A stretch of 64,000 nt of DNA from a bacterium (GTDB taxonomy: Bacteria > Sumerlaeota > Sumerlaeia > SLMS01 > JAHLLQ01). Shown piece after piece: positions 8,866 through 64,000 of this stretch (the stretch's first letter is position 1; the number at the start of each line of letters is the position of its first letter). The notes beneath the pieces were generated by a model. It had not been told where the DNA came from and searched no databases. It was given only the letters and a program-made list of their open reading frames with translations. The stretch lies in assembly GCA_020444065.1 (NCBI GenBank), contig JAHLLQ010000003.1:132979-196978 (forward strand). The letters are read 5' to 3'. A program made the translations under genes and the position numbers.

Positions 8866-8994
8866 GGGGGCAGGTTTCTTCGCCCCCTCCGGGGACGAGT
8901 TGTCTCTCTCAGTCTATCCCCGGGTTCCCTCCCTGCGGTCGGTCACCCGGGGCGATTCAGCTTGGCCGCCCTTCGGGCGACCGCGGGTTCTGCC

Positions 8995-10964: not shown

Positions 10965-11043
10965 CAGATTTCTCATAGCGTCCCCCCGTACTGCCGTCCC
11001 CGCCGTCCCCCCGATCGGCGGGGATGGCGCATGTGGGGGTATT

Positions 11044-11190
11044 GTTGCACGCCTACAGCGTGCGGACCTTTGGGCTTCGGTACCCAGGGCGGGGCTCGCC
11101 GGGCGCTCGATTGCCCTGGGCTGTCGGATGTGGAATCCCGTTGGGATTCTTGCTGGGTTGGCCTGGCTTCGCCTGATGATATTCAATTGG
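11044..11190 (+). repeat. Copy 1 of a ~140-bp GC-rich structured direct repeat with three hairpins.
   Basis: About 85% identical to 12350-12482. It contains the palindromes GCACGCC...GGCGTGC, ACCCAGGGC...GCCCTGGG and GGAATCCC..GGGATTCC. Confidence 0.7.
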
Positions 11191-12343: not shown

Positions 12344-12349
12344 GATGGT

Positions 12350-12482
12350 GTTGCACGCTTACAGCGTGCGGGGTTCGTGGCGTTGGTACCCAGGGCGGCG
12401 CTCGCCCGGGGGCTCGCTTGCCCTGGGCTGTCGGGTGTGGAATCCCGTTGGGATTCCAATTGGAATGGCAGCATTCAATTGG
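12350..12482 (+). repeat. Copy 2 of the ~140-bp structured direct repeat.
   Basis: Aligns with 11044-11190 from 'GTTGCACGCYTACAGCGTGCGG' through 'ATTCAATTGG'. Confidence 0.7.
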
Positions 12483-13249: not shown

Positions 13250-15112
13250 TCATAAGCGGGATTCGGGCCGGCAATGATTTCCTGTGCTGCAGTACCCGCA
13301 GGTCGAACGATCCTTGAAGTACACGACTTCAGGCACATGGCAGAAGTAGTAATATTTGATCTGTGGATGGAAGACAGCTCCCTGTGAACCGAGCCTGAAC
13401 CACGAGCACCAGATTACATTCTCATATGGTAGTTGTTCGCTCCCGTTCCATCCAAGTGAATCCCTAAGGATTTGCATCGCGGTTCTTCCCTCAGAGATGA
13501 TGTCGTCCACGAAGAGTATGCTCCCCTTTCCAGAAGGAATGACCGGGGCGACTTCCAGTCTAATGTGGCGATGTCCTTTCTCATAGAAAGTGAATGTGGC
13601 TGCCGCTTCCATTTCAAGCGCTAAGTGCGCTGCAAACGGAATCGTACTCGTTCCGACTCCCACCACGCAATCGACCTTCAATGGCCTTACCGTATCAACG
13701 ACGACTCTGCGCATTTCAGAGAGAAGAGAGAGCTGGGAGATCAGGGAGCGGCATTTCAATAGGATATTCGTGTGTGCTCCCGTCTCCAATACTACTCGGG
13801 CAAATATGCGGTTTGACTGGTACCAATCCCTGAGCGCGCTTTCAATATCCGGGGCATCCAACCTGAAATCGCCATTCGAAGGCTCTGGCAGCAAAATCTC
13901 GGCAGTCGTACTAGCATTCTCCAGCAACTGACATCCTACAAAACCGCCTGCCTCCTCGCCTGCACCATCGTCGCAGCTACCATTCAGAGGTGGAAGGGAG
14001 TGCATTGGATCTGCTTGTTCTTTCGAATCCCCGGCGCTCATTGTCTGCACCGATTGTGTCCACCTGTCGATTGTCTCCGCGATTACTTCCTCCGATAACA
14101 TCACCTCCTGAGCCGCTGTAGGAAAGCGCTTAGAAACAGTGGCGTCGACACGATTCTTCGGTTCGCCAGCCTTCTCGAACATCGCATTGATTTTTCGAAT
14201 TTCGCTTTCGATCTTGCTAATCCTGAACTCGCTCAAGAAGCGCTCTGCGCTCTCCTTAAGGGCTCCACTTGATTCTAATGGATATACCGGTCGAAGTTGG
14301 ATCTCAGCAGCCCTCTCTGATCCCGTGACTATTATCTCTTTCACGAGTGCGCATGAAAGCCAGTGTGTTTGTGATTCAGGCGGGACGTCAGAGCTACTGA
14401 AGCGCTCTAGCTTGGAAAGTCTCAGTTGGGATCCATCGAGTTCATCTGCCAGCCTGAGCAGTCCTGCAAGCAGGCGTGGGCGAAAAAGATCCTCGCGGAA
14501 TTTCGTCATTGTGAACTTCGGAGACCCGGAGCTGTGGCACTCATCCCACAAGCGTCCATTTGAGTGTGCAAAGGCAATCAGGTGGCATTTGTGTAAGAAA
14601 TCTCGCGATCTTGGATCGGCGAGGCAGGGCGGGGGTATTGCCTTGGGCCATATGCCATCATCTTTCACGGCTTCTTGAATCAATCTGCGGCCAATCTCCA
14701 CATGACTCTTGCGCACCTGATCGGGCGTAAGATCACCCAAGTCCTCGTAGAGAGTCTCCCTAAGGCTCTTCTTTGCGGGAGCCTCCTGGGCAGAGATCAG
14801 ACGATATTGCATCCCAATGTCGTGGATCGCGGACGCCACAGCGAGAGCTACTAATTCAGGAATGGACAGCGGGGGCACCTTGTGCGCGTAGCCATTCTCG
14901 AATAGCTGTTGGCAGTATCCACAAATACGAAGCGAGTGCTCGAGAGTGTGGTCGGTATAGAACGTGTCTTCAATCCTCTCCCATATCGAATGGGCGGTGA
15001 CAATAGCAAGTCGGAGACTACCCTTCATGTCGAAGTCGGGATAAGATCTCAAATCAGAAACGCCCAGTCTCTCCAGGAAGCGCCCGACTTCCCTATCCGG
15101 ATCGATAGACAT
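13250..15112 (-). CDS. HD-domain phosphohydrolase fused to a type I phosphoribosyltransferase domain, with a C-terminal Cys cluster.
   Basis: N-terminal HD motifs (H..H, 'AIHDIGM', 'LADELD'). C-terminal PRPP-binding loop 'ILFVDDIISEGRTA'. Terminal 'CHVPEVVYFKDRSTCGYCSTGNHC'. Low GC. An AGGAG RBS is present. Confidence 0.7.
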   Translation of the reverse strand: MSIDPDREVGRFLERLGVSDLRSYPDFDMKGSLRLAIVTAHSIWERIEDTFYTDHTLEHSLRICGYCQQLFENGYAHKVPPLSIPELVALAVASAIHDIGMQYRLISAQEAPAKKSLRETLYEDLGDLTPDQVRKSHVEIGRRLIQEAVKDDGIWPKAIPPPCLADPRSRDFLHKCHLIAFAHSNGRLWDECHSSGSPKFTMTKFREDLFRPRLLAGLLRLADELDGSQLRLSKLERFSSSDVPPESQTHWLSCALVKEIIVTGSERAAEIQLRPVYPLESSGALKESAERFLSEFRISKIESEIRKINAMFEKAGEPKNRVDATVSKRFPTAAQEVMLSEEVIAETIDRWTQSVQTMSAGDSKEQADPMHSLPPLNGSCDDGAGEEAGGFVGCQLLENASTTAEILLPEPSNGDFRLDAPDIESALRDWYQSNRIFARVVLETGAHTNILLKCRSLISQLSLLSEMRRVVVDTVRPLKVDCVVGVGTSTIPFAAHLALEMEAAATFTFYEKGHRHIRLEVAPVIPSGKGSILFVDDIISEGRTAMQILRDSLGWNGSEQLPYENVIWCSWFRLGSQGAVFHPQIKYYYFCHVPEVVYFKDRSTCGYCSTGNHCRPESRL

Positions 15113-16160
15113 ATCGAATCTCCTCTCGGGGTGTGCAGAGCGAGAAGATGCTCTCTGGACTAACTAGAAAAGGACGACCAATCGAGAGATTGAAGCAGCA
15201 TATTACTTGGCACACTTCTGTGTCGATAGCATTCAGTACCATTAGGGCCTTGTCTATTTCTGCCCCTGTAGCCATGACTTCCGCAAGAAGTGCGGCTCTG
15301 GCACCGGATAGGACTGTATTTCTGGCGGCAGAGATTCGCTTCGCGGGAATTGGCCCAACCTTATCGATAACACAGAGCTGAATCCCAGTGATGGCCTGTA
15401 CAGCGGCGGCGACAAAGAGAGAGGATTGATTCGCCACGACCAGCGTATCCACATCACGTGTATGGCTAATCGTGTCATCGCAGTATCCACCCAAGAGCCG
15501 GTAGGTGACTTCATAGGCACAATCAAGGAGATCCTGGGGACGGGTAAGCATATGCTTTATGGAGAGGTAGCATGACGTGTACATGCCATTATCCATCTGT
15601 AAGAATGGCTTTCCCTCAATCTCTGTCTTTACGAAGAAACCATTCGATTCCGTGGGCAAAATGATGCCTCCGGCACTGAGGTACTTCCTGAACAATCGAT
15701 CCGACCAGAACTGTCGAAATTCGAGAAGGGTCGAAAATGGGAACCGCGTCTGAAGGTCAACAAGCAACTTGGAATTGTGGCCGGCGAACCTCTCGACCAA
15801 GTTGCCTTCACGATCGAAGCTTATAAATGGAATATGGACGTGTGACCATTCTTCTCTGAGGGCCTTCTCGAGTTTCGACTCGCCCCTCACGAGTGCGAAT
15901 CCATCACTGGATGAAAGCGGAGATGCCATTAGCTCCAAGAAGGCACTCACTCGATCGGGCGCAATAGAAAGGGCACTGAAAGGCGTGAAATCTATGACTG
16001 CGGGAGATTCGTGCGGAAGAATTGCTTCAAGCGCGAGTCGCAAGTCTCTTTCGTGTTGAAGAGTTCCATAATCGTAATCCCGCAAGCGCGCGAGTGGATT
16101 AAACTGGCCTGAGCGCAGCTCACGGGCAATCGCCAATTTCAAAGGGTCAACAACTTTCAC
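15093..16160 (-). CDS. PRTase-like protein with a degenerate PRPP loop (possibly non-catalytic).
   Basis: C-terminal 'TLVVANQSSLFVAAAVQAITG...ALLAEVMATGAEI' mirrors a PRTase core, but 'AE' replaces the acidic 'DD'. GTG start abuts the upstream gene's stop (TAAAGTG). It overlaps the downstream gene by 20 nt. Confidence 0.55.
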   Translation of the reverse strand: MKVVDPLKLAIARELRSGQFNPLARLRDYDYGTLQHERDLRLALEAILPHESPAVIDFTPFSALSIAPDRVSAFLELMASPLSSSDGFALVRGESKLEKALREEWSHVHIPFISFDREGNLVERFAGHNSKLLVDLQTRFPFSTLLEFRQFWSDRLFRKYLSAGGIILPTESNGFFVKTEIEGKPFLQMDNGMYTSCYLSIKHMLTRPQDLLDCAYEVTYRLLGGYCDDTISHTRDVDTLVVANQSSLFVAAAVQAITGIQLCVIDKVGPIPAKRISAARNTVLSGARAALLAEVMATGAEIDKALMVLNAIDTEVCQVICCFNLSIGRPFLVSPESIFSLCTPREEIRYVYRSG

Positions 16161-16161
16161 T

Positions 16162-17445
16162 TTATTGTACCCGTTTCCTCAATCTAAACTCTATCATTAT
16201 CTGACATCCGAAAGAGGCGGGAAGTGTCGTGAATTTCGAACTCCTGCGCACGAATTCAAGTGCTCTCTTCCATAGGTTGAGAAAGCATGCATGACCTTCT
16301 TCTTGAAGCATCCCTGGAGAAGCCTCGACTTCCCTTTGAATCAGCTCTCGATGCTCCCGAAAGTAGTCCAAGTCTTTTGCCTCTCGAAATTCGAATGTCA
16401 GGCATCCTTCATTGCTTATCATCGTGAAACAAGCTTGGTCAAAGGCCGAATCGGCATCGAGGCTGGACAGGTATTTTAGTATCGAGATTAAGCCGTGCTT
16501 CTTGCGCTCGATATGAAGCAACCGAAGGGCGCAGGCAGCTTCCAGTGTAGCCCGTGAGTTGGTGGGAGATATACTAAGTGCATTCAATAGATTGCCTGAG
16601 GTGTGACCCAGTTCCCGCTTCATGACCTCAACAAGGTTGTCGTGTACTCCATCCCCCGGATCGCAGCATATCATTCTTACCCGAGCTGGATTGCTGAAGG
16701 CGGGCTGATGTTCGACGACCGGATACGCGGTCCTTGCATACTTGATAGAGTTTGATATTAGCTCGACGCAAGAATCCGCAAAAAGCCGGTGTTCATCCTC
16801 GATTGCCAGGATCCTCTCCAGATCCTCAGTCTGGGCACTCTCTGGTTGCTCGAGGAAGAGGCGGAAGTAATCATGGACCCATTTGCGATAGGGCTCCGTC
16901 GCCGAATTCATAATGTCCCCGACGGTGGTTGAAAGTCCTGTCATTAGCTCGAAGAACCCCGCAGGCTCTCGCTCCACGACCCTTGTTAGCCGGATTAGAG
17001 AATTTCGGCTATCAAGATTCTGGGCTTGATCCGGACGCAAGTCAGACGTCTTCCAGAAGTCGCCAAGTTGCGTGAACTTGGCGTTCTCCTCCGACTCCCA
17101 GTAAATCAGCTCACCTCCAGCCCTTTGCCAGAGTGAGGGGAATCCGGTAAACCACACGAGCCTGCTGGGGAATGAGCCTGCCTTTGGGAGTTCGACCTCG
17201 GTTGGCCCAAGGCTCTTCCTGTATCTCCATTCGCAACCGGCAACTAACCATGCTAAACCGGATACCTCGAGCCGCTGGAAGTCGTCCAGCTTGACGCGAC
17301 AGACACCAGATGACATCAAGATATGGATCCCGTCGTGCGGCGGCTTGACGAAGTAGTCCCAGTCGAGTGTTTTCACTTTTCGATCTCCATGGGATATTAA
17401 TGAACATACGCGATGCACAGGCCTCTGGTGCAAGTGAAAACACAA
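16162..17445 (-). CDS. Hypothetical protein, first gene of the low-GC three-gene island. The C-terminal half is possibly HEAT/ARM-like.
   Basis: 427-aa ORF. TTG start in the track; an internal ATG alternative is near 17316. No family recognised. Confidence 0.5.
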   Translation of the reverse strand: MCFHLHQRPVHRVCSLISHGDRKVKTLDWDYFVKPPHDGIHILMSSGVCRVKLDDFQRLEVSGLAWLVAGCEWRYRKSLGPTEVELPKAGSFPSRLVWFTGFPSLWQRAGGELIYWESEENAKFTQLGDFWKTSDLRPDQAQNLDSRNSLIRLTRVVEREPAGFFELMTGLSTTVGDIMNSATEPYRKWVHDYFRLFLEQPESAQTEDLERILAIEDEHRLFADSCVELISNSIKYARTAYPVVEHQPAFSNPARVRMICCDPGDGVHDNLVEVMKRELGHTSGNLLNALSISPTNSRATLEAACALRLLHIERKKHGLISILKYLSSLDADSAFDQACFTMISNEGCLTFEFREAKDLDYFREHRELIQREVEASPGMLQEEGHACFLNLWKRALEFVRRSSKFTTLPASFGCQIMIEFRLRKRVQ

Positions 17446-18812: not shown

Positions 18813-19177
18813 GGGACGGCCTTGTCGCGTACTCGTACTCAGCGAAGCGGTACTCGAACTCGTACTCGGAGTTGTTTCATGCTGCTGCTTGCGGGCGCCG
18901 AAGTTCGAGAACGATTACGAGCACGAACCCGGAATGGGTCGCGTCGGAAAAGGACAGTCAATTGAGGTGACTTGGCCATCCTTGGCCAAGCGTCCGGGGC
19001 GCGAGCAGGTTCCGTACGGTTCACGACCTTTCTCCACATTCATACGCGAAGCTTGGTTGGCTCGCTCTTGGGCAGAGATGCCCAAGTCACCTCGATGTGA
19101 TCGCTGGCGAGATGCGGCACTGGTTTCGTTGGGGCGTGCGGGTGTACTTGCCGGTTGGAAGCCAGCGGTCCCGGATA

Positions 19178-20653: not shown

Positions 20654-21053
20654 GCCTCGCCTCCTTCTCAGACTGCCGACGACAGGTGTTGTCCCTTGTG
20701 GCGGGTGCGAGGCGCTGGGCGCAAGGATTGAGTCGGCTTATGGCAAGAGTGGGGGAGGGGACGAGGCGGCCAAGTCACCTCGGTTCCCGTTCCCTTCCCA
20801 TTCCCTGCATGTACTCGAACCCGCACCCGAAACCCCAAAAAACGAGTGCGATGACGAGCCCTCGCCACAGCCCGAAGGGATTATACAACTCAGCCAAGGG
20901 TAAGCCGAAGGCGCCACCCTGGGTGGCAGATCGCCGCCAAACTGAACCCCGACGGGGTTCGACACCTCCTCCCGTCGCCTTCTCCCTTGACGGCGCATCA
21001 TCATATCATGATGAATGGATGCGCAAGGACAACACCAGGAGGAACACTCCATC

Positions 21054-24000
21054 ATGGCAGATCAAAATCGCCCCACGAACCTCACCCTCGAGCAGGCGCT
21101 CAAACGCCGCATTCTGGTGCTCGACGGCGCCATGGGAACGATGATCCAGCGCTACAAGCTGCAGGAAGAGGACTTCCGCAGCGATCGCTTTCCGGATCAC
21201 GCGAAGGATCTGAAGGGGAACAACGATCTGCTGACGCTGACCCGCCCGGATGTGATCGAGGCCATTCACCGCGAGTACCTGGACGCCGGCGCGGACATCA
21301 TCGAGACGAACACGTTTAGCGCCACGCGCATCTCGCAGGCCGACTACGACCTGGAGGAGATCTGCTACGAGCTGAACCTGGAGGCTGCCCGCCTGGGTCG
21401 TCGCGTTGTGGACGCCAAGACGGCCGAGACGCCGGACCGGCCGCGGTACCTGCTCGGTTCCATCGGTCCGACGAATCGCACGGCGTCGCTCTCGCCGGAC
21501 GTGAACGATCCGGGCTATCGCGCCGTGACGTTCGATCAACTGGTCGAAGCCTACGCGGAGCAAACCCGCGGACTAATCGAAGGCGGCGTCGACGCGCTGC
21601 TTGTCGAGACGATTTTCGACACGCTGAATGCCAAGGCAGCCTTGTACGCCATTGAAACGGTTTTCGAGGAACGCGGCGCGCGCCTGCCGGTCATGATTTC
21701 CGTGACAATCACCGATCGCTCGGGCCGCACGCTTTCAGGGCAGACGCTGGAGGCTTTCTGGATTTCGATCGAGCGCTTCAATCCGTTGTCCGTCGGCATT
21801 AACTGCGCGCTCGGCGCGGAGGACATGCGCCCGTACCTGGAGGAGTTGTCCGCGATCGCAACGTGCTACACGAGCTGCTATCCGAACGCCGGTCTGCCGA
21901 ACGAGTTCGGCGAGTACGACGACACGCCGGCCAACATGGCGCGGGTGCTCGGGGGTTTCGCCGGCAGCGGTTGGCTGAATTTGATCGGCGGGTGCTGCGG
22001 CACGTCGCCGGCGCACATCTCTGCAATCGCCGAGGCCGTGCGCGAGCTTCCGCCGCGCAAGCGCCCCGATGTGCCACCCGTTTCGCGCTTCTCCGGTTTG
22101 GAGCCTGTCCGCGTGACGGCGGAGTCGAACCTGATCATGGTCGGCGAGCGCACGAACATCACAGGCTCGCCGAAGTTCGCTCGCCTGATCCGCGAAGGCG
22201 ATCTGGACGGTGCGTTGGCGGTTGCTCAGCAGCAGGTCGATAACGGCGCGCAGATCATCGACATCAACATGGACGAGGGCCTGATCGATTCGGAAGCCAC
22301 AATGGTGCGCTTCTTGAATCTGCTGGCGGCGGAGCCCGACATCTCGCGCGTTCCGATCATGGTAGACAGCTCGCGCTGGAGCGTCATCACCGCTGCGCTG
22401 CGTTGTATCCAGGGCAAGGCGATCGTCAATTCGATCAGCCTCAAGGAAGGCGAGGAGAAGTTCCTCGAGCACGCGCGCGAGATTCATCGCTTCGGTGCAG
22501 GCGTTGTCGTGATGGCGTTCGACGAGCAGGGTCAGGCGGATACGGCCGAACGCAAAGTCGAAATCAGCGAGCGCGCCTACAAGTTGCTCGTCGAGAAGGC
22601 CGGCTTCGATCCCACGGACATCATCTTCGATCCGAATGTGCTGACGGTCGGGACGGGCATCGAGGAGCACAACAACTACGCCGTGGCGTTCATCGAAGCG
22701 ACACGCGAGCTGAAGAAGCGTTGCCCCGGCGCGAAGGTCAGCGGCGGCATCAGCAACATCTCGTTCTCCTTCCGCGGCAATCGCCCCGTTCGCGAAGCGA
22801 TGCACTCCGCGTTCCTGTTCCACGCCATCAAGGCGGGGCTCGACATGGCTATCGTGAACGCCGGCATGGTCGAGGTCTACGAAGAGATTCCGAAGGATCG
22901 CCTGGAACTGGTCGAAGATGTTCTTCTCAATCGCCGGGAGGATGCCACCGAGCGCCTGATCGAGTACGCTGAGACCGTGAAGGGTGAGAAGAAGGACGAC
23001 GCCAAAACCGCCGCTGCGTGGCGCGATGGCACGGTTGAGGAGCGTCTTTCGCATGCTCTGATCAAGGGCATTGTCGAGTTCATCGATGAGGACGTTGAAG
23101 AAGCGCGCCAGAAGTTCGACCGCCCGCTCGAAGTGATCGAAGGGCCGTTGATGGACGGCATGAACGTCGTCGGCGACTTGTTCGGCAGCGGCAAAATGTT
23201 CCTGCCTCAGGTCGTGAAGAGCGCGCGCGTGATGAAGAAGGCCGTCGCCTGCCTTCTGCCCTACATGGAGAAGGAGAAGGAAGAACGCGGCATCACGAAG
23301 GGCGCGGCGAAGGTGCTGCTCGCGACCGTCAAAGGCGACGTCCACGACATCGGCAAGAATATCGTCGGCGTGGTTCTCGGATGTAATGGTTACGACATCA
23401 TCGATCTCGGCGTCATGGTGCCGACGGACAGAATCCTTCGCGAAGCCCGCGAGCAGGACGTCGACATCATCGGCCTGAGCGGCCTGATCACACCATCGCT
23501 CGACGAGATGGTTCACGTCGCGAAGGAGATGGAGCGCGAAGGTTTCAAGGTTCCGCTGCTGATCGGCGGTGCCACGACGAGCCGCATCCACACTGCCGTC
23601 AAGATCGCCCCGCAGTACAGCGCTCCCGTCGTGCATGTGCTCGATGCATCCCGCGCAGTCGGCGTGGTGCAGGGTTTGCTCGACGAAAAAGGTGGGACGG
23701 AGTACGCACGCCAGGTTGCCGAAGATCAGCAGACGTTGCGCGATCACCATCGCAGCAAGCAGGGCGAGGCGAAGCTCGTTTCGCTCGAGCAGGCCCGCGC
23801 GAATAAGCCGACGTTCGACTGGTCCAGCGCAAAGATCGACGAGCCAGAATTCCTGGGCCCAAAGCTGTACGATGTCGCGATCGAAGACCTCGTGCCGTTC
23901 ATTGATTGGACGCCATTCTTCCATGCGTGGGAGCTCAAGGGCGTGTACCCGAAGATTCTCGATCACCCGAAGTACGGCGAGCGTGCCCGCGAGCTGCAGC

Positions 24001-24740
24001 GCGATGCACAGAAGATGCTCGAGGATTTCATCACCAACAAATCGCTGACCGCGCGTGGCGTGCTCGGACTCTTCGCTGCCAACTCCGATGGTGACGATGT
24101 TGTCATCTACGAGGGCGAAACGCCTGTGAAGATACTGAACTTCCTGCGCCAGCAGGCGGAAAAGGATTCCGCCAAGTCGCATCTATGCCTAGCGGATTAC
24201 ATTGCTCCGCGCGACACGAAACGGCGCGACACAATTGGGGCTTTCGCAGTCACGGCAGGTGTTGGAGTGAAGGAACTGTGCGCCGTTTACGACGCCGATC
24301 ACGATGACTACCATTCAATCATGGTCAAGGTTCTCGCTGATCGTCTCGCGGAAGCATTTGCGGAGTACATCCACAAGCAGGCTCGCGATGCGTGGGGATT
24401 CGGCAAGGCGGAGAACTTCACGAACGACGATCTGATTGCAGAGAAGTATCGCGGCATTCGCCCGGCGCCGGGCTACCCGTCATGTCCGGATCATACGGAG
24501 AAGGCGAAGCTCTTCGAGTTGCTTGACGCGGAGAGAATCGGAGCGAACCTGACCGAGTCGTTCATGATGGATCCAGGCGCTTCGGTTTGCGGATACATGT
24601 TCGCGCACCCCGAGGCACGTTATTTCGATGTGCGCCCGATCGATCGCGATCAGGCCGCCGACTACGCGCAACGCAAGGGCGAGTCGGCGGAGTACGTCGA
24701 GCAATGGTTGGCGTCGGAGTTGTCGTACGATCCGTCGTAA
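21054..24740 (+). CDS. metH: Cobalamin-dependent methionine synthase MetH.
   Basis: Homocysteine-binding and pterin-binding modules. B12-binding '[11 protein letters not shown]' (DxHxxG). C-terminal AdoMet activation domain. Confidence 0.9.
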
Positions 24741-31820: not shown

Positions 31821-31903
31821 GGTTACCCGCTACAGAGGTGACTCGGGCATCTCTGCCCGAGCACCACACGCGTTAGCCATTCAGCCATACGTTCCAGTCG
31901 CCA

Positions 31904-38833: not shown

Positions 38834-38909
38834 TGGTGGAGCTGAGGGGAGTCGAACCCCTGACCTCTGCATTGCGAACGCAGCGCTCTACCAACTGAGC
38901 TACAGCCCC
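38834..38909 (-). tRNA. tRNA-Ala (anticodon CGC).
   Basis: Reverse complement gives GGGGCTGTAGCTCAGTTGGTAGAGCGCTGCGTTCGCAATGCAGAGGTCAGGGGTTCGACTCCCCTCAGCTCCACCA. It has a G3:U70 pair, anticodon loop TTCGCAA, a TPsiC arm and a CCA end. Confidence 0.85.
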
Positions 38910-39094: not shown

Positions 39095-39240
39095 AAGAGG
39101 GCAACATAGGTTGCTGGTGCTCCTCGCGATCCGCGCGGGGGGCGGCAAGGGGAAGTCCGGTGAGAGTCCGGCGCAGGCCCGCTACGGTAATCGCGTCCGC
39201 AAGGAGCGCGAAAGCCCGATACCGCCAGTCATCCGACGAC
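39095..39240 (+). promoter_or_regulatory. Cobalamin (B12) riboswitch.
   Basis: 'GGTGCTCC...AAGGGGAAGTCCGGTGAGAGTCCGGCGCAGGCCCGCTACGGTAA...AAGCCCGATACCGCCAGTC' matches the cobalamin-riboswitch core and B12 box. A terminator-type expression platform follows. Confidence 0.75.
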
Positions 39241-39302
39241 GAAGTGCCCTACCCTCTCGAGGTCCGGAGCGGCAGGGGACGAGCCGGATTAGATTTTGCG
39301 CG

Positions 39303-56126: not shown

Positions 56127-56624
56127 ATGCCATACTCAGTGCTTCCCGACGATTCAGATTACAGACCCTATCAGAATCTGCCGCATCACCTTGACCACAA
56201 GCCCATCCTTGCTCTGCCGTACCAGGCTTTCGATGCATTCTACCCCCGCGAGAGAACCGATGTCCGCTGGATATCGGTGGGTACAGCCCAGTACGACCCC
56301 GGGCACATTTCAGTGAAGACATGGCGGCACTCGGAGAGGCGGTGGAGCAGAATGTCCGAAGAGCTGCCTCTTCACAGGGTCTTTGACGCCGCCGATTTCG
56401 CTGCAAGATGCATTTCCCTCGAGGGTGACACTCTCGAAATTCCGGTTGGTACATATGAAAGGCAGGAACTTGCCATCCGGATTCAGGATGAGAGTGAAAG
56501 CAGAACGTCGGGGGCAATGGATGTGATGGTCGACTTCAACGCGCGGCACGGAGAAATGCTCCGTCGCCGGATGCGGAATCTTCTGGATACTCTCAGATTC
56601 CTGGAGAGTCAGGGCCGCCTCTAG
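56127..56624 (+). CDS. Hypothetical protein.
   Basis: 165-aa ORF preceded by an AT-rich palindromic promoter-like region. Confidence 0.4.
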   Translation: MPYSVLPDDSDYRPYQNLPHHLDHKPILALPYQAFDAFYPRERTDVRWISVGTAQYDPGHISVKTWRHSERRWSRMSEELPLHRVFDAADFAARCISLEGDTLEIPVGTYERQELAIRIQDESESRTSGAMDVMVDFNARHGEMLRRRMRNLLDTLRFLESQGRL

Positions 56625-58572: not shown

Positions 58573-58948
58573 GAGCAGCGCCCCGGGATGATGTTTCGAC
58601 GTTCAAGGCCTGTGGTGGGGCGGGTTGGCGCGTCAATCGGAGACACGACAGGGCATTCTCATTGTCCCAACCTCTTCGTTGCGCGGCGGACGGTGGGCTC
58701 GGTCACGTACTGGAGTACGCTCCCTCGCCCCCCGCCTTGCGCGCCTCGATCTTGGAACAAGCAGAATGCCCTGTCGGGGTGGTGGTGGGGCGCCCAGGGC
58801 TTGCGCCTTGGGCTGGTACAGGGCGGGGCATTGCCCCTTTTTGTGGGTTCGAGTGCGAGTTCGAGTACGTGTACGAGTCCGAGAGGGATTGTGTGCTCAT
58901 GCTCAGCGAATCGGTGCTCGTCGCCGGGCTGTGGTTGGTGGGTTGGCT

Positions 58949-59034
58949 CTTGGGCAAGGATGCCCAAGTCACCTCGAAAAAGACATGCCGTCTGAGGTGA
59001 CTTGAGCATCCTTGCTCAAGCCCCAGAGGTTTTG
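58949..59034. repeat. Full palindromic MITE/REP-like element of the same family as the 9.0-9.3 kb tandem array.
   Basis: CTTGGGCAAGGATGCCCAAGTCACCTCG...TGAGGTGACTTGAGCATCCTTGCTCAAG. Confidence 0.65.
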
Positions 59035-59114
59035 GGCTTTTCTGCTGACGTATTCTGGATTCTTCGAGGCGTGGCGGGCAATTTGCCGGCTGGAAGCCGG
59101 CGGTCCCAGGGGCT

Positions 59115-60050
59115 TCAGCTGCGACGTTTGCGGCGTGAGCGGGGTTTCTTGTCTTCCCTGGCAGGTTCGGGGGCTGCGTCTTCTTTGGGCAGGGGAGGGG
59201 CGGTGCTGGGGTGGCTGTGGGGGGAGATCGGTTGTTTGTGCGACCACCACAGGAGGCCGACTCCGATGGGGACCATCAGGAGCGAGAGGATCTGGGAGGT
59301 GCTGAGGAGGCCGCCGAGCCACAGGCCGCGTTCGGCGTCGCCGCGCAGGAATTCGAGGAGGAACCGCAGCAGGGCGTAGCCGATGACGTACAGCGCCAAA
59401 GTCTGCCCCGGGCGACGCGGGCGGGTCGCGAACCAGAGCAGCGCGAAGCCGATCAGGAAGAGTCCGGCGGACTCCATGAGCTGCACCGGCCAGATGCCAA
59501 GGCTGTGCCCGGCGCCGGGCGGGATGACACCGCGGGAGAGCTGGTCCTCGAAGGCGTTGTAGAACGGCAGGCCGTTGGGCTGAGTGTGGGGCTCGATGTG
59601 GATGGCGAACGGGGAATTGCACTGGCCGCCGAAGCAGCAGCCGGCGAAGTGACACCCAATGCGGCCGAAGGCATGGCCGATGGCGATGCTGGGCGCGACG
59701 ATATCGCCCATCGGCAGGATCGGGATTTTGCGCCATCTGAGGAAGATGATGCAGCAGATGACGGCGCCGATCAGTCCGCCGAGGAAGACGAATCCGGTCC
59801 GCGAGAGCAGGATGCTCATCGGGTCGGTTTTGAAGGTCTCCCATTCCAGGAAAATGAAGAAGATGCGGGCGGAGACGAGTCCGCCGATGACGGCCACAAG
59901 CGCGAGATCGAACACGCGATCGGGTGCGATGCCGCGGCGTCGGGCGCGCCAGCTGGCGAGCGTGACGGCGACGAGCAAGCCGAGGGCGACCATGACTCCG
60001 TAGGTGCCGATAAAGAAGGAATCGCCGATCTGGATGAGTACGGGGTGCAT
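59115..60050 (-). CDS. lgt: Prolipoprotein diacylglyceryl transferase.
   Basis: 'GHAFGRIGCHFAGCCFG' Lgt signature. Seven TM helices. Confidence 0.85.
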   Translation of the reverse strand: MHPVLIQIGDSFFIGTYGVMVALGLLVAVTLASWRARRRGIAPDRVFDLALVAVIGGLVSARIFFIFLEWETFKTDPMSILLSRTGFVFLGGLIGAVICCIIFLRWRKIPILPMGDIVAPSIAIGHAFGRIGCHFAGCCFGGQCNSPFAIHIEPHTQPNGLPFYNAFEDQLSRGVIPPGAGHSLGIWPVQLMESAGLFLIGFALLWFATRPRRPGQTLALYVIGYALLRFLLEFLRGDAERGLWLGGLLSTSQILSLLMVPIGVGLLWWSHKQPISPHSHPSTAPPLPKEDAAPEPAREDKKPRSRRKRRS

Positions 60051-60297
60051 TGGATCTCCTGGAGGCCGTCAAGCAACGACCAGGCGCGCAGTGTGGGCGC
60101 CGGGGAGGATGAGAGGCAAACGAAATGCCAAGAGCAGTGGCTAGTGGCGAGTGGCGAGTGGCCTTCGCTGAAGCTGCGGCGCCCTACGGTGATGAGTCGC
60201 AACAAAGGATCGTGCCAGCGCCTTGCGCGTCTCGATCTTGGCCCAAGCAGAACGCCCTGGCACGTTGGGAAGGGCTGAGGTTTCCACACGAAACGGG

Positions 60298-60503
60298 GTT
60301 GCCTCGGACATCGGCCGGGATGTTTTCTATGCATGTCGGTATTTCGAGGATAGCCAAAGATGGCACGGCTTGCTCGTATCGTTTCGCCCGGGGGCGGCAC
60401 TCGCCTTCGCCGCCACAAGCGCAGGCGGTTATCGAAAGAGGAAGAATCTACCGGCAAGATGGAGATGACGTTCGATGAATAGAGTATCCTGTCGCCGAAT
60501 GTC
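60298..60503 (+). repeat. Copy 1 of a ~210-bp GC-rich structured repeat (family C) with terminal inverted repeats GGACATCGGC...GCCGAATGTCC.
   Basis: 80-90% identical to 61281-61498, 62287-62386 (partial) and 62871-63083. Internal palindrome GACATCGGCCGGGATGTT. Confidence 0.7.
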
Positions 60504-60582
60504 CCACACCTACCGGATAAGTGCAGTAAGGACATTCGCAGCAATTCAGTAGTGCAAGATACTCAATCATGAGGAAGGCATA

Positions 60583-61257
60583 ATGAAAATCAGGCCAAAC
60601 TCCTTTCGACGTGTTGTCTGTCTGTGTGTCACCTCCGTAGTTGTTGCAGTTGTGATGTTTGGGAGAATCACGGCGAATGGCGTATCCAGTGACTTTCACT
60701 TCACATGGAGGAATGTGACAGTTTCCGATATCATCGGGGGCGTGGTCGCGGATCTTAGAAAGAGGGACAGCACGACGGATGTTGTTGTGGAGCTTCCCGG
60801 ATTTGGGGGGCTTGGGTTCGTTCATGTATTCACGGAGACAAGTCATGATGATACCATCGTGTACTCAGTGATCAGCGTGGATGCCGAATCGTTGGAAGAG
60901 CTGGCCCAGCAATTGGAGGCGCAAATGCGCAACTTCAGAATCGCCTACAACAAGAATATGGACATCCTGTCTTTCATTGACCCCAGAGTTGCAGATAGCA
61001 GCGATTGGCAGCTGAACATAGCCGTGCACAAGGCGGTCTCGCTGGAGGAGGATTGCAATATCGAACCGGCTTCAGATTATGACTTCCCCCCTCTCGACGT
61101 GAAGCTCCCTCCGGTCCGAGACTTCGTATTCAGATACGTTGAGTCCCTGGAGGGGCCTTGTCACTACGTGGCAATTACTCGTGGAGCTACGGATCGTTTA
61201 GTGATGCTCATTGATCAGGCTCCGACATACGTCAGAGATCCCTCAGGCACGAAATAG
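60583..61257 (+). CDS. Cassette ORF 1: signal-anchored hypothetical protein, lower GC.
   Basis: 224 aa; N-terminal TM helix 'VVCLCVTSVVVAVVMF'. Lies between repeat copies 1 and 2. Confidence 0.5.
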   Translation: MKIRPNSFRRVVCLCVTSVVVAVVMFGRITANGVSSDFHFTWRNVTVSDIIGGVVADLRKRDSTTDVVVELPGFGGLGFVHVFTETSHDDTIVYSVISVDAESLEELAQQLEAQMRNFRIAYNKNMDILSFIDPRVADSSDWQLNIAVHKAVSLEEDCNIEPASDYDFPPLDVKLPPVRDFVFRYVESLEGPCHYVAITRGATDRLVMLIDQAPTYVRDPSGTK

Positions 61258-61280
61258 AAGCCGTGGTAATACGGGCACAG

Positions 61281-61498
61281 GATACTCTTATCTTGCCTCG
61301 GACATCGGCCGGGATGTTCTCTATATATGCAGGTATTTCGGGGAACGCTCATTATGGCGCAGTTGGCGCGCATCGTTTCGCCCGGGGGCGGGACTTGTCT
61401 TCGGCGCTATTAACGCGGGCGGTTATCGAAAAAGGAGAAATCTCTCGGCCAGATGGAAATGAAGTTCGATGAATAGAGTATCCTGTCGCCGAATATCC
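61281..61498 (+). repeat. Copy 2 of the family-C structured repeat.
   Basis: Alignment with copy 1. Confidence 0.7.
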
Positions 61499-61551
61499 TC
61501 TGACCTTATTCATCCCGATTGGCGATGAAATCAGACTGGCGAGACTGACTT

Positions 61552-62223
61552 ATGCTGCTCGAAATCACGACTCATCAGTATCAGGTACGGTGCCGACGGT
61601 GTTCCAGGAATTACTGGGGAGAAATTGGTCCCGATGCCTACGAAGGATTTCTTCTGCTGGACGAACACTATGTGCCCGCTGGCTGTTGGCGGCTAGATGA
61701 TTGGCTCTGGGAGGATCTGAGGGTCCTCATACAAGGCTACGAGGGGATTCATCCCGAGCGGATGCTGCAGTTGGAATGGATTCAGGAAACCAAGCGGGGA
61801 GTCCAGCGCGATCTTCTATTGGGTATGGTCTTGGCCGCAGAGTCGCATCATCCCGGATACCGCCTGCATTGTCTGCCACCATGTCCTAATTGTGGCGAAT
61901 ACGCTGTCTATTACATGGTTACTGGGCACATCAAAAGAAACCTGCAGCAACTTACTGCTGACAGTTGGCGAAAGCGAACGGATGCTGATCGGCAGACGGT
62001 AGCATTCGGATACCTGGATTATCTCCATGATCATCCTCCGCTCGATCATGTCGATGTTTTGACCGTCCCGCCAGTCACCCTATATGAGTCCATGATTGGG
62101 AATATGGACGGACTCAAAAGGGGAGAGATCCTCGAAAGGCTCTTGAAGCACTTCGCGCGACTCGGCATGGAACCTCCAAGGATTGCCGATGATGACTTCG
62201 AAGTTCCTGACTACAGATTCTAG
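61552..62223 (+). CDS. Cassette ORF 2: cytoplasmic hypothetical protein with two CxxC pairs (zinc-ribbon-like), lower GC.
   Basis: 223 aa; 'CRRCS' ... 'CPNCG'. Confidence 0.5.
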   Translation: MLLEITTHQYQVRCRRCSRNYWGEIGPDAYEGFLLLDEHYVPAGCWRLDDWLWEDLRVLIQGYEGIHPERMLQLEWIQETKRGVQRDLLLGMVLAAESHHPGYRLHCLPPCPNCGEYAVYYMVTGHIKRNLQQLTADSWRKRTDADRQTVAFGYLDYLHDHPPLDHVDVLTVPPVTLYESMIGNMDGLKRGEILERLLKHFARLGMEPPRIADDDFEVPDYRF

Positions 62224-62286
62224 ACCCACATGCCTTCAAGCGCGAAGCCGAATTTTCTGCAAGACTGGGACGGCAAAACGTGGACT

Positions 62287-62386
62287 GGATACTCTTATCT
62301 TGCCTCGGACATCGGTCGGGATGTCTTCTATGCATGTCGGTATTTCGCGGAACTCTCTTCACGGCGCAGTTGGCGCGCATCATTGG
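62287..62386 (+). repeat. Copy 3 (truncated, ~100 bp) of the family-C repeat, fused to the start of the next ORF.
   Basis: Aligns with the 5' half of copies 1 and 2. Confidence 0.6.
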
Positions 62387-62394
62387 TATTTCCC

Positions 62395-62835
62395 ATGAAA
62401 GCTCACCTTGGTGAAAAGAGGTCGTGGCCCGCATCAGCACGAGCAGTTGTCCTGATCTTCATCATGCTGTCACTTATCGCCAGCTATGTCACTTACAGGG
62501 TTTCTGTGGGTCCGATTTCCACTCAGGAAGCAATGAAGACACGAGAGGCGAAGGGAATACTGAAGGAGCTGGAGCTAGAATTGCGCACTCAAGCCAATCG
62601 AGGAAAGTCCCAATGGACGATCGAAGAAGTAAATAATACTGTTTCCTCCTTGGGCCTAAAAGATCCATTCCGATTCAACTCCCCCATGGCCATTCAGGAA
62701 GATGGCCAATTCTGGCTTGTCTTCAGGGGTGACCCAAGTGGGACTCCCTACGATCCGACAAACGGCGCGTTATCTCCGGGGTGGATCCAGTTTGATTTTG
62801 TGCCTGGGCAAGCCCCGATGGCCGATGGGGATTGA
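62395..62835 (+). CDS. Cassette ORF 3: signal-anchored small hypothetical protein.
   Basis: Start 'MKAHLGEKRSW' directly after the truncated repeat. TM helix 'VVLIFIMLSLIASYV'. The track ORF from 62230 includes repeat sequence and is rejected. Confidence 0.45.
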   Translation: MKAHLGEKRSWPASARAVVLIFIMLSLIASYVTYRVSVGPISTQEAMKTREAKGILKELELELRTQANRGKSQWTIEEVNNTVSSLGLKDPFRFNSPMAIQEDGQFWLVFRGDPSGTPYDPTNGALSPGWIQFDFVPGQAPMADGD

Positions 62836-62870
62836 ATCTTCGTGGCAATGGCAAAAACGGTGACAAAAAC

Positions 62871-63083
62871 CTCTCTTCTTGCCTCGGACATTGGCCGGGG
62901 TGACTTCTATGCATGTCGGTATTTGGAGGATAGCCGGCCATGACACGGCTTGCTTGTTCGCATCCTCTCGCCCGGGGGCGGCACTCGCCTTCGCCCCACC
63001 GGCGCGGGCGGAAATCGAAAGAGGAGGAATCTCCCGGCCGGATGGAACTGACGTTCGATGAATGGCGTGTCTTGTCCCCGAAT
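62871..63083 (+). repeat. Copy 4 of the family-C structured repeat.
   Basis: Alignment with copies 1 and 2. Confidence 0.7.
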
Positions 63084-63139
63084 TTCTCGATAGCGCCTCA
63101 CGGAAGCGACCTCCAAGTAGGTATGGCTGGAAGTAGCCA

Positions 63140-63949
63140 CTAGTCTGGAATCTGAATTGTACCAGTCGCCTCCAGTCCTCGTGACGGGGGCACAAGAAGA
63201 TCGAACTTGATTCGATGGGGGCTGTCTGGATCGATGCGGAGATTGCCTTTCTGAGGATCAGGGTCGATTAGAATCAGCTCATCTCGGTCCGGTGAGAGGT
63301 AATAGACTCCCGCGTCTCGCGCATGCCCGTCAGGTGCAATCCAATAGCCCATTCGGATAACAAGTCCCCCGCTGAGGAGCGGAAGTACCTCCCACACGGC
63401 GGCACGTCCGGATAGCACTTCTTCCAGGGATTCGCTCCCGGGGCTCCAGGAAAGGAGAGTACTGGAGCAGACGTACAAGACTTGCTTCCGAGGATCCCAA
63501 ACGAAGTCAGGAACCGCTCCGTCCAATTTGCCAATGCATTTCGAGCTTTCCTCTCTTGGTTCAATGACCCAGATCTCATGAGCCCTGGAGATTGGTGTTT
63601 CGCTCGTGCGAAGGCGCCTCGCCTCTGGATTTGTTAAGACAATGACAAATGGAGTATCTAAATCCCGCGCCGCAAAATGCGCTCGATCTTGGAGCTTGAG
63701 AATCGGGCGCGAATCTGATCGACGATCAGTTGGCGAGATCGATAGCACCGATCCCCCCTCCTTCCCTGGAGATAGGATTAGCTCCTTGCCGTTACGCGTA
63801 ATGGCGGCCTCAGTTGCAGGAGTGGAAAGTTCTGACGCCAGACTCCTGTCCAGTTGATCATCAAGAGAGGATGCCAGCTGCGCACCGGCAGATTCGATCT
63901 CCGATATCTTTGCAGAAAAGCGCTCTCTGTCGCCGTGATCCTTTCTCAT
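63140..63949 (-). CDS. Hypothetical protein. Its 3' end abuts the last repeat copy.
   Basis: 269-aa ORF with moderate GC. No family recognised. Confidence 0.4.
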   Translation of the reverse strand: MRKDHGDRERFSAKISEIESAGAQLASSLDDQLDRSLASELSTPATEAAITRNGKELILSPGKEGGSVLSISPTDRRSDSRPILKLQDRAHFAARDLDTPFVIVLTNPEARRLRTSETPISRAHEIWVIEPREESSKCIGKLDGAVPDFVWDPRKQVLYVCSSTLLSWSPGSESLEEVLSGRAAVWEVLPLLSGGLVIRMGYWIAPDGHARDAGVYYLSPDRDELILIDPDPQKGNLRIDPDSPHRIKFDLLVPPSRGLEATGTIQIPD

Positions 63950-64000
63950 TCGATAGGAATACTCAACGAGATCTCCTCGAACCTTGAAGTCCCTTAGCTC

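Follow-up and report, generated by a model that had tools for sequence, protein, structure and literature searches.

Beside the housekeeping gene lgt, at 60.3–63.1 kb of the window (the whole 64-kb stretch of DNA analysed here), four co-oriented repeats of ~235 nt (c1–c4) alternate with three ORFs (ORF1–ORF3). This cassette-like layout is genuine and constitutes the strongest feature of the locus. We tentatively interpret it, at a probability of about 40%, as a short, decaying stack of modules joined by recombination, each module combining an orphan accessory ORF with a lineage-specific, non-coding repeat of ~235 nt on its 3′ side.

Architecture of the array beside lgt

Every non-coding gap between lgt and the convergent gene at the far end holds one repeat copy, giving n unrelated ORFs of low GC content enclosed by n+1 co-oriented repeats (Table 1). 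The four copies reported by the first-pass annotation, one of them truncated, are all recovered by model searches (E-values 5e-22 to 1.5e-66), with c3 corresponding to the 5′ half of the unit, and the single co-oriented ORF assigned to each inter-repeat interval is likewise present. Searching both strands of the 64-kb window with nhmmer and cmsearch yields no further copy. The distance from the upstream stop codon to the 5′ end of the repeat is a few bases for c2 (4–6 nt past the ORF1 stop) and for c4 (5–11 nt past the ORF3 stop) and ~39–48 nt for c3; no co-oriented ORF follows c4.

Table 1. Coordinates of the repeats, the ORFs and the bordering genes in the window.
Feature	Position	Strand	Remarks
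lgt (prolipoprotein diacylglyceryl transferase)	59115–60050	−	Pfam LGT, E=2.7e-55
Repeat c1 (214 nt)	60291–60504	+	First in array; cmsearch 207.5 bits, E=5e-63
Conserved 5′ core hairpin and U-rich run (in c1)	60306–60331	+	GGACAUC-GGCCGG-GAUGUUU UUCUAU; terminator-like flag
ORF1 (224 aa)	60583–61257	+	MCB2154930 / KQI84_08580
Repeat c2 (237 nt)	61262–61498	+	Best preserved; cmsearch 219 bits, E=1.5e-66
ORF2 (223 aa)	61552–62223	+	MCB2154931 / KQI84_08585
Repeat c3	62272–62384	+	5′ half only; cmsearch 74.4 bits, model positions 3–113 of 242
ORF3 (146 aa)	62395–62835	+	MCB2154932 / KQI84_08590; N-terminal hydrophobic anchor
Repeat c4 (246 nt)	62841–63086	+	Last in array; cmsearch 211.5 bits; identical in L007
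Convergent gene closing the array	63140–64000	−	Runs off the window; GC 54%

Two Logan contigs from independent short-read assemblies (L001 and L007) are base-identical to positions 59084–60354 and 61465–64000, so neither the lgt–c1 junction nor the stretch that runs from the 3′ tail of c2 to c4, c3 included, is an artefact of MAG assembly; this support does not extend to positions 60355–61464 (the rest of c1, ORF1 and most of c2). The sequence of c3 is among those reproduced without change in L007. As for features of an inverton, the inverted repeats are intact in c2 alone, and the independent assemblies agree on orientation where they cover the locus.

On the left, lgt is divergent from the array and forms the border of the low-GC island, with a GC content of 66% versus 52% in the array ORFs. 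The closest relative (L008) encodes an Lgt protein that is 82% identical and has no array beside the gene; upstream of its lgt lie a Ser/Thr kinase gene and a gene for a 192-aa protein whose N-terminus resembles a lipoprotein signal. On the right, the convergent gene can be read through L007 for 393 nt past the end of the window, comprises at least 417 codons, matches nothing in Pfam or PHROGs and shows no significant sequence similarity to PDB entries. Recombinase and transposase families, Phage_integrase included, find no match among the 44 ORF calls in the 64-kb window (E≤1e-5 for most ORFs, ≤0.01 near the array).

The repeat unit

The true terminal inverted repeat of the unit, ATACGGGCACAGGATACTCT / AGAGTATCCTGTCGCCGAAT, is intact in c2 only, where the two 20-nt arms (61269–61288 and 61475–61494) match at 17 positions and AATA stands on either side. 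The other copies have lost parts of it: c1 is missing the left arm as it occurs in c2 and c3, a loss of 16 nt (ACAGGATACTCTTATC), homology in c3 ends at ...GCGCATCATT, 11 nt 5′ of the ORF3 start codon, so that no right arm is present, and the inverted repeat of c4 has decayed to about 12/20 in a hand alignment. The flanks of c1 (GAAA/AATG) and c4 (AAAA/AATT) are A-rich and may belong to the unit. Relative to c1, c4 carries a 4-nt insertion and a 1-nt deletion. Repeat centres are of 'type A' in c1 and c4 and of 'type B' in c2 and c3; the copies hint at being mosaics of one another, without reaching significance in a maximum chi-square permutation test (p=0.10).

Several details of the initial description need correction. 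Copies c2, c3 and c4 start ~10–30 nt further 5′ than first drawn. The inverted repeats then taken as terminal (GGACATCGGC...GCCGAATGTCC) are exact in c1 only, and their left member lies ~30 nt inside the unit. An identity of 80–90% had been given; BLAST local alignments return 80–85% and whole-copy alignments of the full copies 71–82%, with 94% identity confined to a 52-nt stretch of c1 and c3. A reported internal "perfect palindrome", GACATCGGCCGGGATGTC, is found nowhere in the window: in this region c1 and c2 end ...GATGTT, c3 has the loop GGTCGG and the symmetry of c4 is lost.

The repeats were also described as GC-rich and structured. Their GC content is in fact 52.7–58.9% against a background of 60.7%, and together with the ORFs (51.6–52.4%) they make up one low-GC island. 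They fold no better than shuffled sequence, with MFE z-scores of −1.3 to +1.4 for whole copies on both strands and −1.2 to +1.0 for the terminal segments folded as ssDNA. RNAalifold returns a positive covariation term (+1.69) with 2 compensatory pairs of 67, at the low power afforded by only 3–4 sequences, and a search of the region against Rfam 15 gives no match even at E≤5. The proposal that the repeats are structured leader RNAs thus gains nothing from the Rfam and covariation analyses, and c4 precedes no gene. The view that their conservation is non-coding is supported by the lack of 3-base periodicity (25, 22 and 16 variable columns by phase).

The hairpin and U-rich run of the 5′ core (Table 1) recur at ~61300–61325 in c2 and 62307–62332 in c3 and are flagged as terminator-like in c1–c3; their RNA fold energies are −8.0 to −10.7 kcal/mol, and as ssDNA they fold no better than shuffles. 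Counted from the upstream stop codon, this weak intrinsic-terminator-like motif lies ~35–50 nt downstream in c2 and further away in c3. The element probably ends transcription of the upstream ORF. No sigma-70-like promoter is found in the repeat copies on either strand.

An integron cassette array or CALIN, the reading favoured in the first-pass annotation, is unsupported: the units are overlong, have no cores and form no hairpin, and no recombinase accompanies them in the window. That canonical R′/R″ cores are missing had already been remarked, and this holds for both strands in or near every copy. Since GTTRRRY and RYYYAAC are mutual reverse complements, one regex scan spans both strands; across 60200–63200 it returns only GTTRRRY at 61138 (inside ORF1) and RYYYAAC at 62673 (inside ORF3), 2 motifs versus 5.4 expected from shuffles, and no pair spaced 40–260 nt apart. 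attC sites range from 57 to 141 nt in length, and the full units of the array (214–246 nt) are about twice as long as the longest of them. An attC-like fold of the bottom strand, suggested as a check, gives no hairpin-type signal, only c2 being able to pair both ends. The search for an intI recombinase, also suggested, finds none within the 64-kb window, and lgt sits upstream of c1. On core, length and folding criteria we reject the identification of the repeats as attC sites.

The three ORFs and a fifth repeat copy

The three ORFs had been characterised as two signal-anchored proteins and one CxxC protein, which agrees with our analysis: ORF1 and ORF3 each have one N-terminal hydrophobic segment (residues 6–34 in ORF1), and ORF2, which has none, contains two Cys clusters, CxxC near residue 14 and CxxxCxxC near residue 107. 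ORF1 is preceded at 6 nt by a good Shine-Dalgarno sequence (GAGGAAGG), and its GC content per codon position (0.56/0.39/0.60) is coding-like. An alternative 201-aa call for ORF3, which starts at 62230 and reads through c3, is probably a gene-caller artefact. Sequence comparison confirms that the three are unrelated to each other. Among 5.8 billion proteins ORF1 and ORF2 have no homologue, each matching itself only; ORF1–3 match no Pfam, NCBIfam, PADLOC or PHROGs family, and ORF3 has no PDB sequence match. An AlphaFold2 model of ORF2 made without an alignment is unusable (pLDDT 37.5). All three reading frames stay open (224, 223 and 146 codons) while the repeats are ~20% diverged with indels, suggesting that the ORFs are selected while the repeats drift.

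Five repeat copies are known in total, the four of the array and one at KQI84_08245, on the same contig and 67 genes (locus tags) away. Residues 338–396 of the KQI84_08245 product (MCB2154864) are translated repeat: the ORF has no stop codon of its own and reads into the repeat, which is fused to the 3′ end of the gene, and the CGG at which homology begins is that of the left arm of c2. The gene is family-less, is co-oriented with its repeat copy and has a low-GC-type amino-acid make-up, with GARP/FYMINK fractions of 0.22/0.22 that compare with 0.23/0.22 for ORF1 and a GARP fraction of ~0.29–0.39 for core genes. It is a second site with the same ORF-to-repeat coupling as the array.

The repeat also misleads annotation: in the PGAP version KQI84_08245 runs on for 59 codons into it, and a gene caller fused c3 to ORF3.

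Origin of the array and comparison with known systems

In the proposed stacking, a circular or incoming unit of ORF plus repeat would recombine with a resident repeat copy beside lgt, either site-specifically at the inverted-repeat-bounded unit or by plain homologous recombination across ~235 nt. Each event would add one ORF and regenerate the repeat on both sides, leading to n+1 co-oriented repeats and n ORFs. We infer both the recombination itself and the enzyme behind it. The count argues for such a process, with four co-oriented repeats for three ORFs, one per gap and none elsewhere in 64 kb. So does the coupling of repeat to ORF: the repeats abut the upstream ORFs, the ORF at the fifth copy reads into the repeat, and this copy is again co-oriented with a family-less gene of low-GC-type composition. 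Cassette cargo is usually orphan, and here the ORFs are mutually unrelated, with ORF1 and ORF2 absolute orphans. Further points in favour are the GC content of the block (52–59% versus 61%), to which nothing upstream of lgt in the closest relative corresponds, and the open state of the ORFs next to repeats diverged with indels.

Other observations weigh against stacking. No recombinase or transposase family is represented among the ORF calls in the window, and the decay of the repeats (the deletion in c1, the half copy c3, the 12/20 arms of c4) leaves at most one complete site. The GC content of the repeats is close to that of the ORFs, meaning that the island could have arrived as one block. 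Mosaicism between copies falls short of significance, the two independent assemblies are identical, and only five copies are known. The presence of other intergenic repeat families raises the prior for ordinary dispersed repeats.

The dispersed-repeat account, the main rival, which we consider possible though on balance unlikely, holds that the repeats are old, decayed MITE copies. Each would have inserted on its own into an AT-rich non-coding gap of a three-gene island that was already present and had been acquired horizontally, and the array-like look would be a by-product of target preference. This account is strengthened by the fifth copy, 67 genes distant, and by the 17/20 terminal inverted repeats of c2, which lie exactly at the homology ends and have a chance probability of ~1e-5 (binomial estimate, boundary slack allowed). 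The unit is small and non-coding, its copies display neutral-looking decay and indels, and further intergenic repeat families occur in the window, one of them palindromic, ~80 nt long and present at six or more sites. Without the repeats, normal intergenic gaps of 50–70 nt remain; these are 45–47% GC, and A/T-rich targets would concentrate there in a 61% GC genome. Yet none of ~40 other gaps in the window is filled, including those around low-GC islands at 13–17 kb and 33–34 kb, whereas four consecutive gaps all are. The four local copies, moreover, all point the same way (probability 1/8), and the fifth points the same way as its own gene; for 3 of the 4 the left end falls 0–11 nt from the upstream stop codon. 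The AATA on both sides of c2 could be a 4-bp target duplication, but A-rich flanks are common to all copies and it may instead be part of the unit. No transposase is found in the window, and copies only 71–85% identical leave no room for a recent burst able to saturate a 3-kb stretch.

A more far-reaching version of stacking, which we regard as doubtful, is that Sumerlaeota possess a non-integron gene-capture system in which the ~235-nt units, with inverted repeats at their ends (CGGGCACAGGATACTCT...AGAGTATCCTGTCGCCG), act as sites of recombination, so that orphan genes are loaded singly and head-to-tail at repeat copies in the chromosome. The recombinase would then be encoded elsewhere in the genome, and the lgt array and the KQI84_08245 copy would each represent one loading site.

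Less probable again is that selection, and not mobility, keeps the repeat as a shared cis-regulatory module before co-regulated accessory genes, serving the upstream gene as terminator and the downstream gene as promoter, operator or 5′ leader. The arrangement of c1, c2 and c3, each 11–79 nt ahead of one ORF, fits this, but c4 precedes no gene and the fifth copy occupies the 3′ end of one. Conserved blocks alternate with variable ones, the terminator-like hairpin and U-run are kept in c1–c3, and the 3′ half of the repeat has a conserved purine-rich, AGGAG-like block; ORF3 is nevertheless intact although c3 lacks the whole 3′ half, and start-codon distance and Shine-Dalgarno context differ between the ORFs. 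Nor does any copy contain a sigma-70-like promoter on either strand, match an Rfam family even at E≤5, or show covariation or excess stability.

Least probable of all, the array could be the distal part of a rAID-type array or of an unusual chromosomal integron, with the recombinase encoded past the convergent gene or at another place in the genome, in either case outside the window; co-oriented genes of 100–300 codons, GC below that of the host and repetitive intergenic sequences are shared traits, and the sequence in view stops at 64.4 kb on the right, but the recombinase gene of an integron or a rAID array sits at the 5′ end of the array, a position that lgt occupies here, the right side closes with a convergent gene (at least 417 aa) without a recombinase family match, no cargo matches an immunity or defence family, and the attC criteria fail.

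If stacking is correct, cassette-style accretion of orphan genes exists beyond integrons and Bacteroidales rAID arrays, in an uncultured candidate phylum and using a recombination site roughly double the length of any attC; the search space for gene capture would widen, and tools built on attC models or intI would miss such systems. If the repeats are MITEs, the locus is an ordinary decaying repeat family, and its main value is practical, in that the repeat causes annotation errors.

By analogy, the stacking logic would resemble that of integron or Bacteroidales rAID arrays, with repeats that are not attC sites and no dedicated recombinase in view. Sedentary chromosomal integrons and CALINs (e.g. 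Vibrio VCR arrays) share with the locus single, mostly orphan, co-oriented ORFs arranged head-to-tail, a species-specific repeat with inverted-repeat ends close after each ORF, and cargo whose GC content is unlike that of the host. The locus differs from them in its 214–246-nt repeats, which lack cores and hairpin folding, are 71–85% identical and have both arms intact in one copy only, and in having lgt on the 5′ side and no intI found.

rAID-1 arrays consist of two or more co-oriented genes of 100–300 codons whose GC content is lower than that of the host, set apart by conserved, repetitive intergenic sequences (bioRxiv 10.1101/471110, PMC12247911), and are defined by toxin-immunity homologues as cargo and by a XerD-like tyrosine recombinase encoded at the 5′ end (10.1101/471110); their authors describe the Bacteroidales arrays as reminiscent of integrons, yet not integrons (10.1101/471110, PMC12247911). 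The genes and repeats of the locus conform to this pattern, with three genes of 146–224 codons at 52% GC versus a 61% background and repeats in every gap. It is unlike rAID-1 in belonging to Sumerlaeota and not Bacteroidota, in comprising three genes only, and in lacking a XerD-like recombinase at the 5′ end and a toxin-immunity match among its cargo.

With bacterial MITEs and intergenic repeats (Correia/NEMIS, ERIC, RUP; composite units flanked by MITEs, e.g. integron mobilisation units) the locus has in common a small non-coding unit with terminal inverted repeats, an intergenic or transcribed 3′ position, several diverged copies per genome, possible terminator-like hairpins and read-through from upstream ORFs. 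Unlike them, it has no known parent IS and no clear target duplication, except possibly at c2, and it is set apart by strict co-orientation, by a copy in each consecutive gap of one island and by the abutment of repeats on stop codons.

Architecture of the repeat array beside lgt

Four co-oriented copies (c1–c4) of a repeat of about 235 nt lie beside lgt and are matched by their own profile at E=5e-22 to 1.5e-66, and the same search across both strands of the 64-kb window returns no further copy. The first-pass annotation had described a single co-oriented ORF between successive repeats; this architecture is correct for ORF1, ORF2 and ORF3, and the locus is a genuine, non-random feature. Within the island, every consecutive non-coding gap holds one repeat, whereas the ~40 other gaps of the window, including those around two other low-GC islands, hold none. 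The left ends of the repeats fall shortly past the upstream stop codon (4–6 nt for c2, 5–11 nt for c4), with c3 as the exception (~39–48 nt). To the left, c1 is followed by minus-strand lgt and then by ymdB and a TrkA-type K+ channel gene; to the right, the array is closed by a convergent gene (the end gene), which leaves the window and of which at least 417 codons are readable in a Logan contig. ORF1–ORF3 are located on an 837-kb contig under locus tags KQI84_08580–08590.

Positions of the array and of other repeats and islands in the window
Feature	Position	Strand	Remark
Repeat c1	60291-60504	+	alignment and profile match
ORF1	60583-61257	+	224 aa; NCBI MCB2154930 / KQI84_08580
Repeat c2	61262-61498	+	alignment and profile match
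ORF2	61552-62223	+	223 aa; NCBI MCB2154931 / KQI84_08585
Repeat c3	62272-62384	+	5' half only
ORF3	62395-62835	+	146 aa; NCBI MCB2154932 / KQI84_08590
Repeat c4	62841-63086	+	alignment and profile match
~75-80-nt palindromic family	58944-59025, 8991-9028, 9093-9169, 9233-9303, 18963-19095, 31835-31861		arms 88% complementary
~120-nt repeat	11043-11162, 12349-12469		82-86% identical, 1306 nt apart
Genes bracketed by the ~120-nt repeat	11183-11821, 11846-12343	-	no Pfam family
41-50-nt repeat	58733-58782, 60219-60268		84-90% identical
Second low-GC island	13250-17445	-	51-52% GC; three genes

Exact-protein look-ups for the flanking DNA yielded two short Logan contigs (L001 and L007). Window positions 59084–60354 and 61465–64000 are base-identical in these two short-read assemblies, which come from other sequencing runs and both break within repeats, as expected of a k-mer assembler. 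The arrangement covered is therefore no MAG assembly artefact; this independent support leaves out 60355–61464, comprising the rest of c1, ORF1 and most of c2.

The three ORFs and the end gene share no relationship with one another, as had been noted for the ORFs, and none of the four has a match in Pfam, NCBIfam, PADLOC or PHROGs. Two anchored proteins and one cysteine protein had been proposed as cargo, in agreement with a single N-terminal hydrophobic segment in each of ORF1 and ORF3 and with two Cys clusters and no such segment in ORF2. ORF1 and ORF2 show a coding-like GC1/2/3 pattern and match only themselves among 5.8 billion proteins; a distant paralogy between the two, considered for their equal length and the 994/1007-nt period, was rejected since the alignment scores are within the shuffle range. 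PDB sequence searches with ORF3 and the end gene returned nothing significant, and the AlphaFold2 prediction for ORF2, run without an alignment, is unusable (pLDDT 37.5). All three ORFs are still open while the flanking repeats have diverged by ~20% and gained indels, pointing to selection on the ORFs and drift in the repeats.

Composition, ends and conservation of the repeat

The repeats, previously called GC-rich, contain 52.7–58.9% GC compared with 60.7% in the rest of the window, and form together with the ORFs (51.6–52.4%; short spacers, 45–47%) a single low-GC island reaching the window end. The identity of 80–90% assigned to the copies holds in its lower half for local BLAST alignments (80–85%) and falls to 71–82% when the full copies are aligned over their whole length.

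The true terminal inverted repeat, ATACGGGCACAGGATACTCT / AGAGTATCCTGTCGCCGAAT, is found at the ends of c2, where 17 of 20 positions match. Its left arm has been removed from c1 by a 16-nt deletion, its right arm is missing from c3 along with the entire 3' half, and the arms of c4 match at ~12/20 positions by hand alignment. The inverted pair GGACATCGGC...GCCGAATGTCC, earlier taken to be terminal, is exact in c1 and only there, with its left member ~30 nt inward from the edge of the unit; the perfect palindrome GACATCGGCCGGGATGTC attributed to the repeats is present in no copy. Between ORF2 and c3, a putative remnant of a repeat 3' end (GCCGAATTTTC) is no better than a chance match, and a hint of mosaic recombination among the copies falls short of significance (p=0.10).

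Folding lends no support to the description of the repeat as structured: MFE z-scores range from -1.3 to +1.4 for whole copies on both strands and from -1.2 to +1.0 for terminal segments folded as ssDNA, and the covariation term that RNAalifold computes from three copies is positive (penalising), with 2/67 compensatory pairs. The best-conserved 5' block of the repeats contains a 7-bp hairpin with a U-rich run behind it; in c2 this element lies ~35–50 nt past the upstream stop and, judged by sequence, it is a plausible transcription terminator.

Conservation acts at the nucleotide level and is non-coding, as suggested before: variable columns are distributed 25/22/16 by codon phase, and the absence of codon periodicity and, in every frame, of the high GC3 of the genome's genes excludes a coding origin. 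The mini-ORF MEMTFDE* was likewise discarded as a coding signal, being conserved in neither c4 nor the fifth copy described below. Adenine-specific mutagenesis of the DGR type was rejected on the mixed substitution spectra, and a sigma-54 promoter on inspection of the c1 motif TGGCAC-N3-TTGC, which is wrongly spaced and not conserved.

A fifth copy, related genomes and other repeats

One reading frame stays open in every copy; its four translations were aligned and run as a profile against 1.84 billion representative proteins. The top match (82.8 bits, E=1.3e-18) is MCB2154864 (KQI84_08245), a 396-aa multi-pass membrane protein whose gene precedes ORF1 by 67 locus tags on the 837-kb contig, and its last 59 residues are translated repeat (...GQATLVLPRTSAGVSSMHVGISR...DGDDAR*). 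The similarity starts exactly at the CGG opening the left inverted-repeat arm of c2, and the stop codon of the protein is the TGA that c1, c2 and c4 also use in that frame. A further copy, known here from the protein sequence, thus abuts in the same orientation the 3' end of a gene without a stop of its own, with its left end at or before the stop position of that gene. KQI84_08245 has no Pfam family, and its amino-acid make-up (GARP 0.22, FYMINK 0.22) is like that of low-GC island genes and unlike that of core genes. The two other matches, to a translated CRISPR array (P0127) and to a repetitive 1425-aa eukaryote-type receptor-kinase-like protein (P0126), were treated as spurious. The 59 codons by which PGAP lengthens KQI84_08245 into the repeat are an annotation artefact caused by the repeat, and another artefact arises at 62230–62835, where a gene caller fuses c3 and ORF3 on a Logan contig into a 201-aa protein.

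Exact-pattern scans of genome and metagenome contig collections with the conserved 21-nt core gave only chance matches among the matches listed (Arthrobacter, Slackia, a coding region and others), the source genome itself not being matched. Two core patterns had 0 matches in viral contigs, and blastn with c2 found nothing in plasmid and phage collections.

Lgt homologues of named source belong to Sumerlaeia/Sumerlaeota (former BRC1). The closest relative found, from ENA bin Sumerlaeia_SLMS01, has an 82% identical Lgt; upstream of lgt, its 5.5-kb contig (L008) carries genes for a Ser/Thr kinase and for a 192-aa protein whose N-terminus bears a lipoprotein-like signal, and neither repeat nor array; the island is thus no conserved feature of the lgt neighbourhood. 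The repeat is also absent from the lgt neighbourhood of a second relative (L009, 21 kb). A sigma-54-type motif, TGGCAT-N5-TTGC (TGGCATTTCGTTTGCC), upstream of lgt (~60118–60133, minus strand) is kept as TGGCATTTCATTTGCC in the closest relative (L008 ~3806–3821), where the adjacent (AGTGGCG)n simple repeat (60136–60165 in the window) has the opposite orientation.

The window contains other intergenic repeats. A dispersed, strongly palindromic family of ~75–80 nt (TGGCTCTTGGGCAAGGATGCCCAAGTCACCTC ... GAGGTGACTTGAGCATCCTTGCTCAAGCC) resembles REP or MITE elements and has no relation to the 235-nt repeat. The ~120-nt pair constitutes another repeat-gene-repeat arrangement in the same genome. The 41–50-nt repeat has one copy between ymdB and lgt, which is one arm of an inverted repeat (58646–58670 / 58752–58776), and another directly upstream of c1 with its own 8-nt flanking inverted repeat. 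The second low-GC island, possibly a defence island, begins with an HD-CE domain gene (PF24391, E=1.3e-18) followed by two genes without family, and the profile search finds no 235-nt repeat in it. Elsewhere, the window encodes a DUF6530 protein (56127–56624, E=1.6e-18; 56% GC), a lone plus-strand gene among minus-strand core genes; a tRNA (38837–38909, minus); a B12-dependent methionine synthase (21015–24740); and a cobalamin riboswitch (39098–39243, plus), downstream of which lie genes for a cobalamin adenosyltransferase-domain protein and for FecCD/ABC transporters.

Origin of the array and relation to known systems

The most likely reading, to which we assign a probability of about 0.4, is that an ORF with its downstream repeat is the evolutionary unit and that such units joined a resident repeat copy one after another. 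A circle with a single repeat would integrate into a chromosomal repeat by site-specific or homologous recombination, and integration of this kind would yield exactly the observed repeat/ORF pattern. Serial addition is indicated by the n+1 repeats for n ORFs, the single orientation of all copies, the confinement of copies to the island gaps, the proximity of repeat left ends to upstream stops (c2, c4 and the fifth copy, with c3 as the exception) and the renewed coupling of the repeat to a low-GC-type, family-less gene at a second site. The array is not active now, its copies being too decayed.

The main rival, which we hold to be only somewhat less probable, regards the repeats as decayed miniature inverted-repeat elements of an old MITE family. 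The match between the two ends of c2 far exceeds chance expectation, AATA lies on both sides of c2, the copies decay like neutral DNA, a dispersed copy exists at KQI84_08245, and the genome contains other intergenic repeat families; moreover, an element whose target is A/T-rich would be drawn to the AT-rich gaps in a low-GC island. However, all copies are co-oriented, their left ends cluster on stop codons, and the A-rich flanks are common to all of them and therefore may belong to the repeat unit. Four consecutive gaps are also saturated by copies just 71–85% identical, so there was no recent burst of repeat insertion. Serial addition and a MITE origin can combine, as repeat-flanked genes could move as composite units. 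A shared regulatory module copied beside genes is improbable, given that the repeats carry no promoter or RNA-structure signal and that c3, c4 and the fifth copy are at odds with it. Slightly less probable still is a recombinase-associated array whose recombinase would lie outside the window, past the visible sequence, which reaches 64.4 kb. Pfam scans of 44 ORF calls across the 64-kb window revealed no integrase, other recombinase or transposase.

The array had been likened to an integron or CALIN, a resemblance confined to architecture. Neither strand has an RYYYAAC/GTTRRRY core within a copy or next to one, attC-like hairpin-type folding is absent from whole copies on both strands and from terminal segments as ssDNA, and the full units measure 214–246 nt, whereas attC sites span 57–141 nt. 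The position expected for intI and attI is occupied by lgt, and no intI was found among the 44 ORF calls of the window. There is therefore no justification for classing the array as either an integron or a CALIN. Outside integrons, its closest described analogue is the Bacteroidales rAID-1 array; the array beside lgt has neither the 5' XerD-like recombinase nor the immunity-gene cargo by which rAID-1 is defined (bioRxiv 10.1101/471110).
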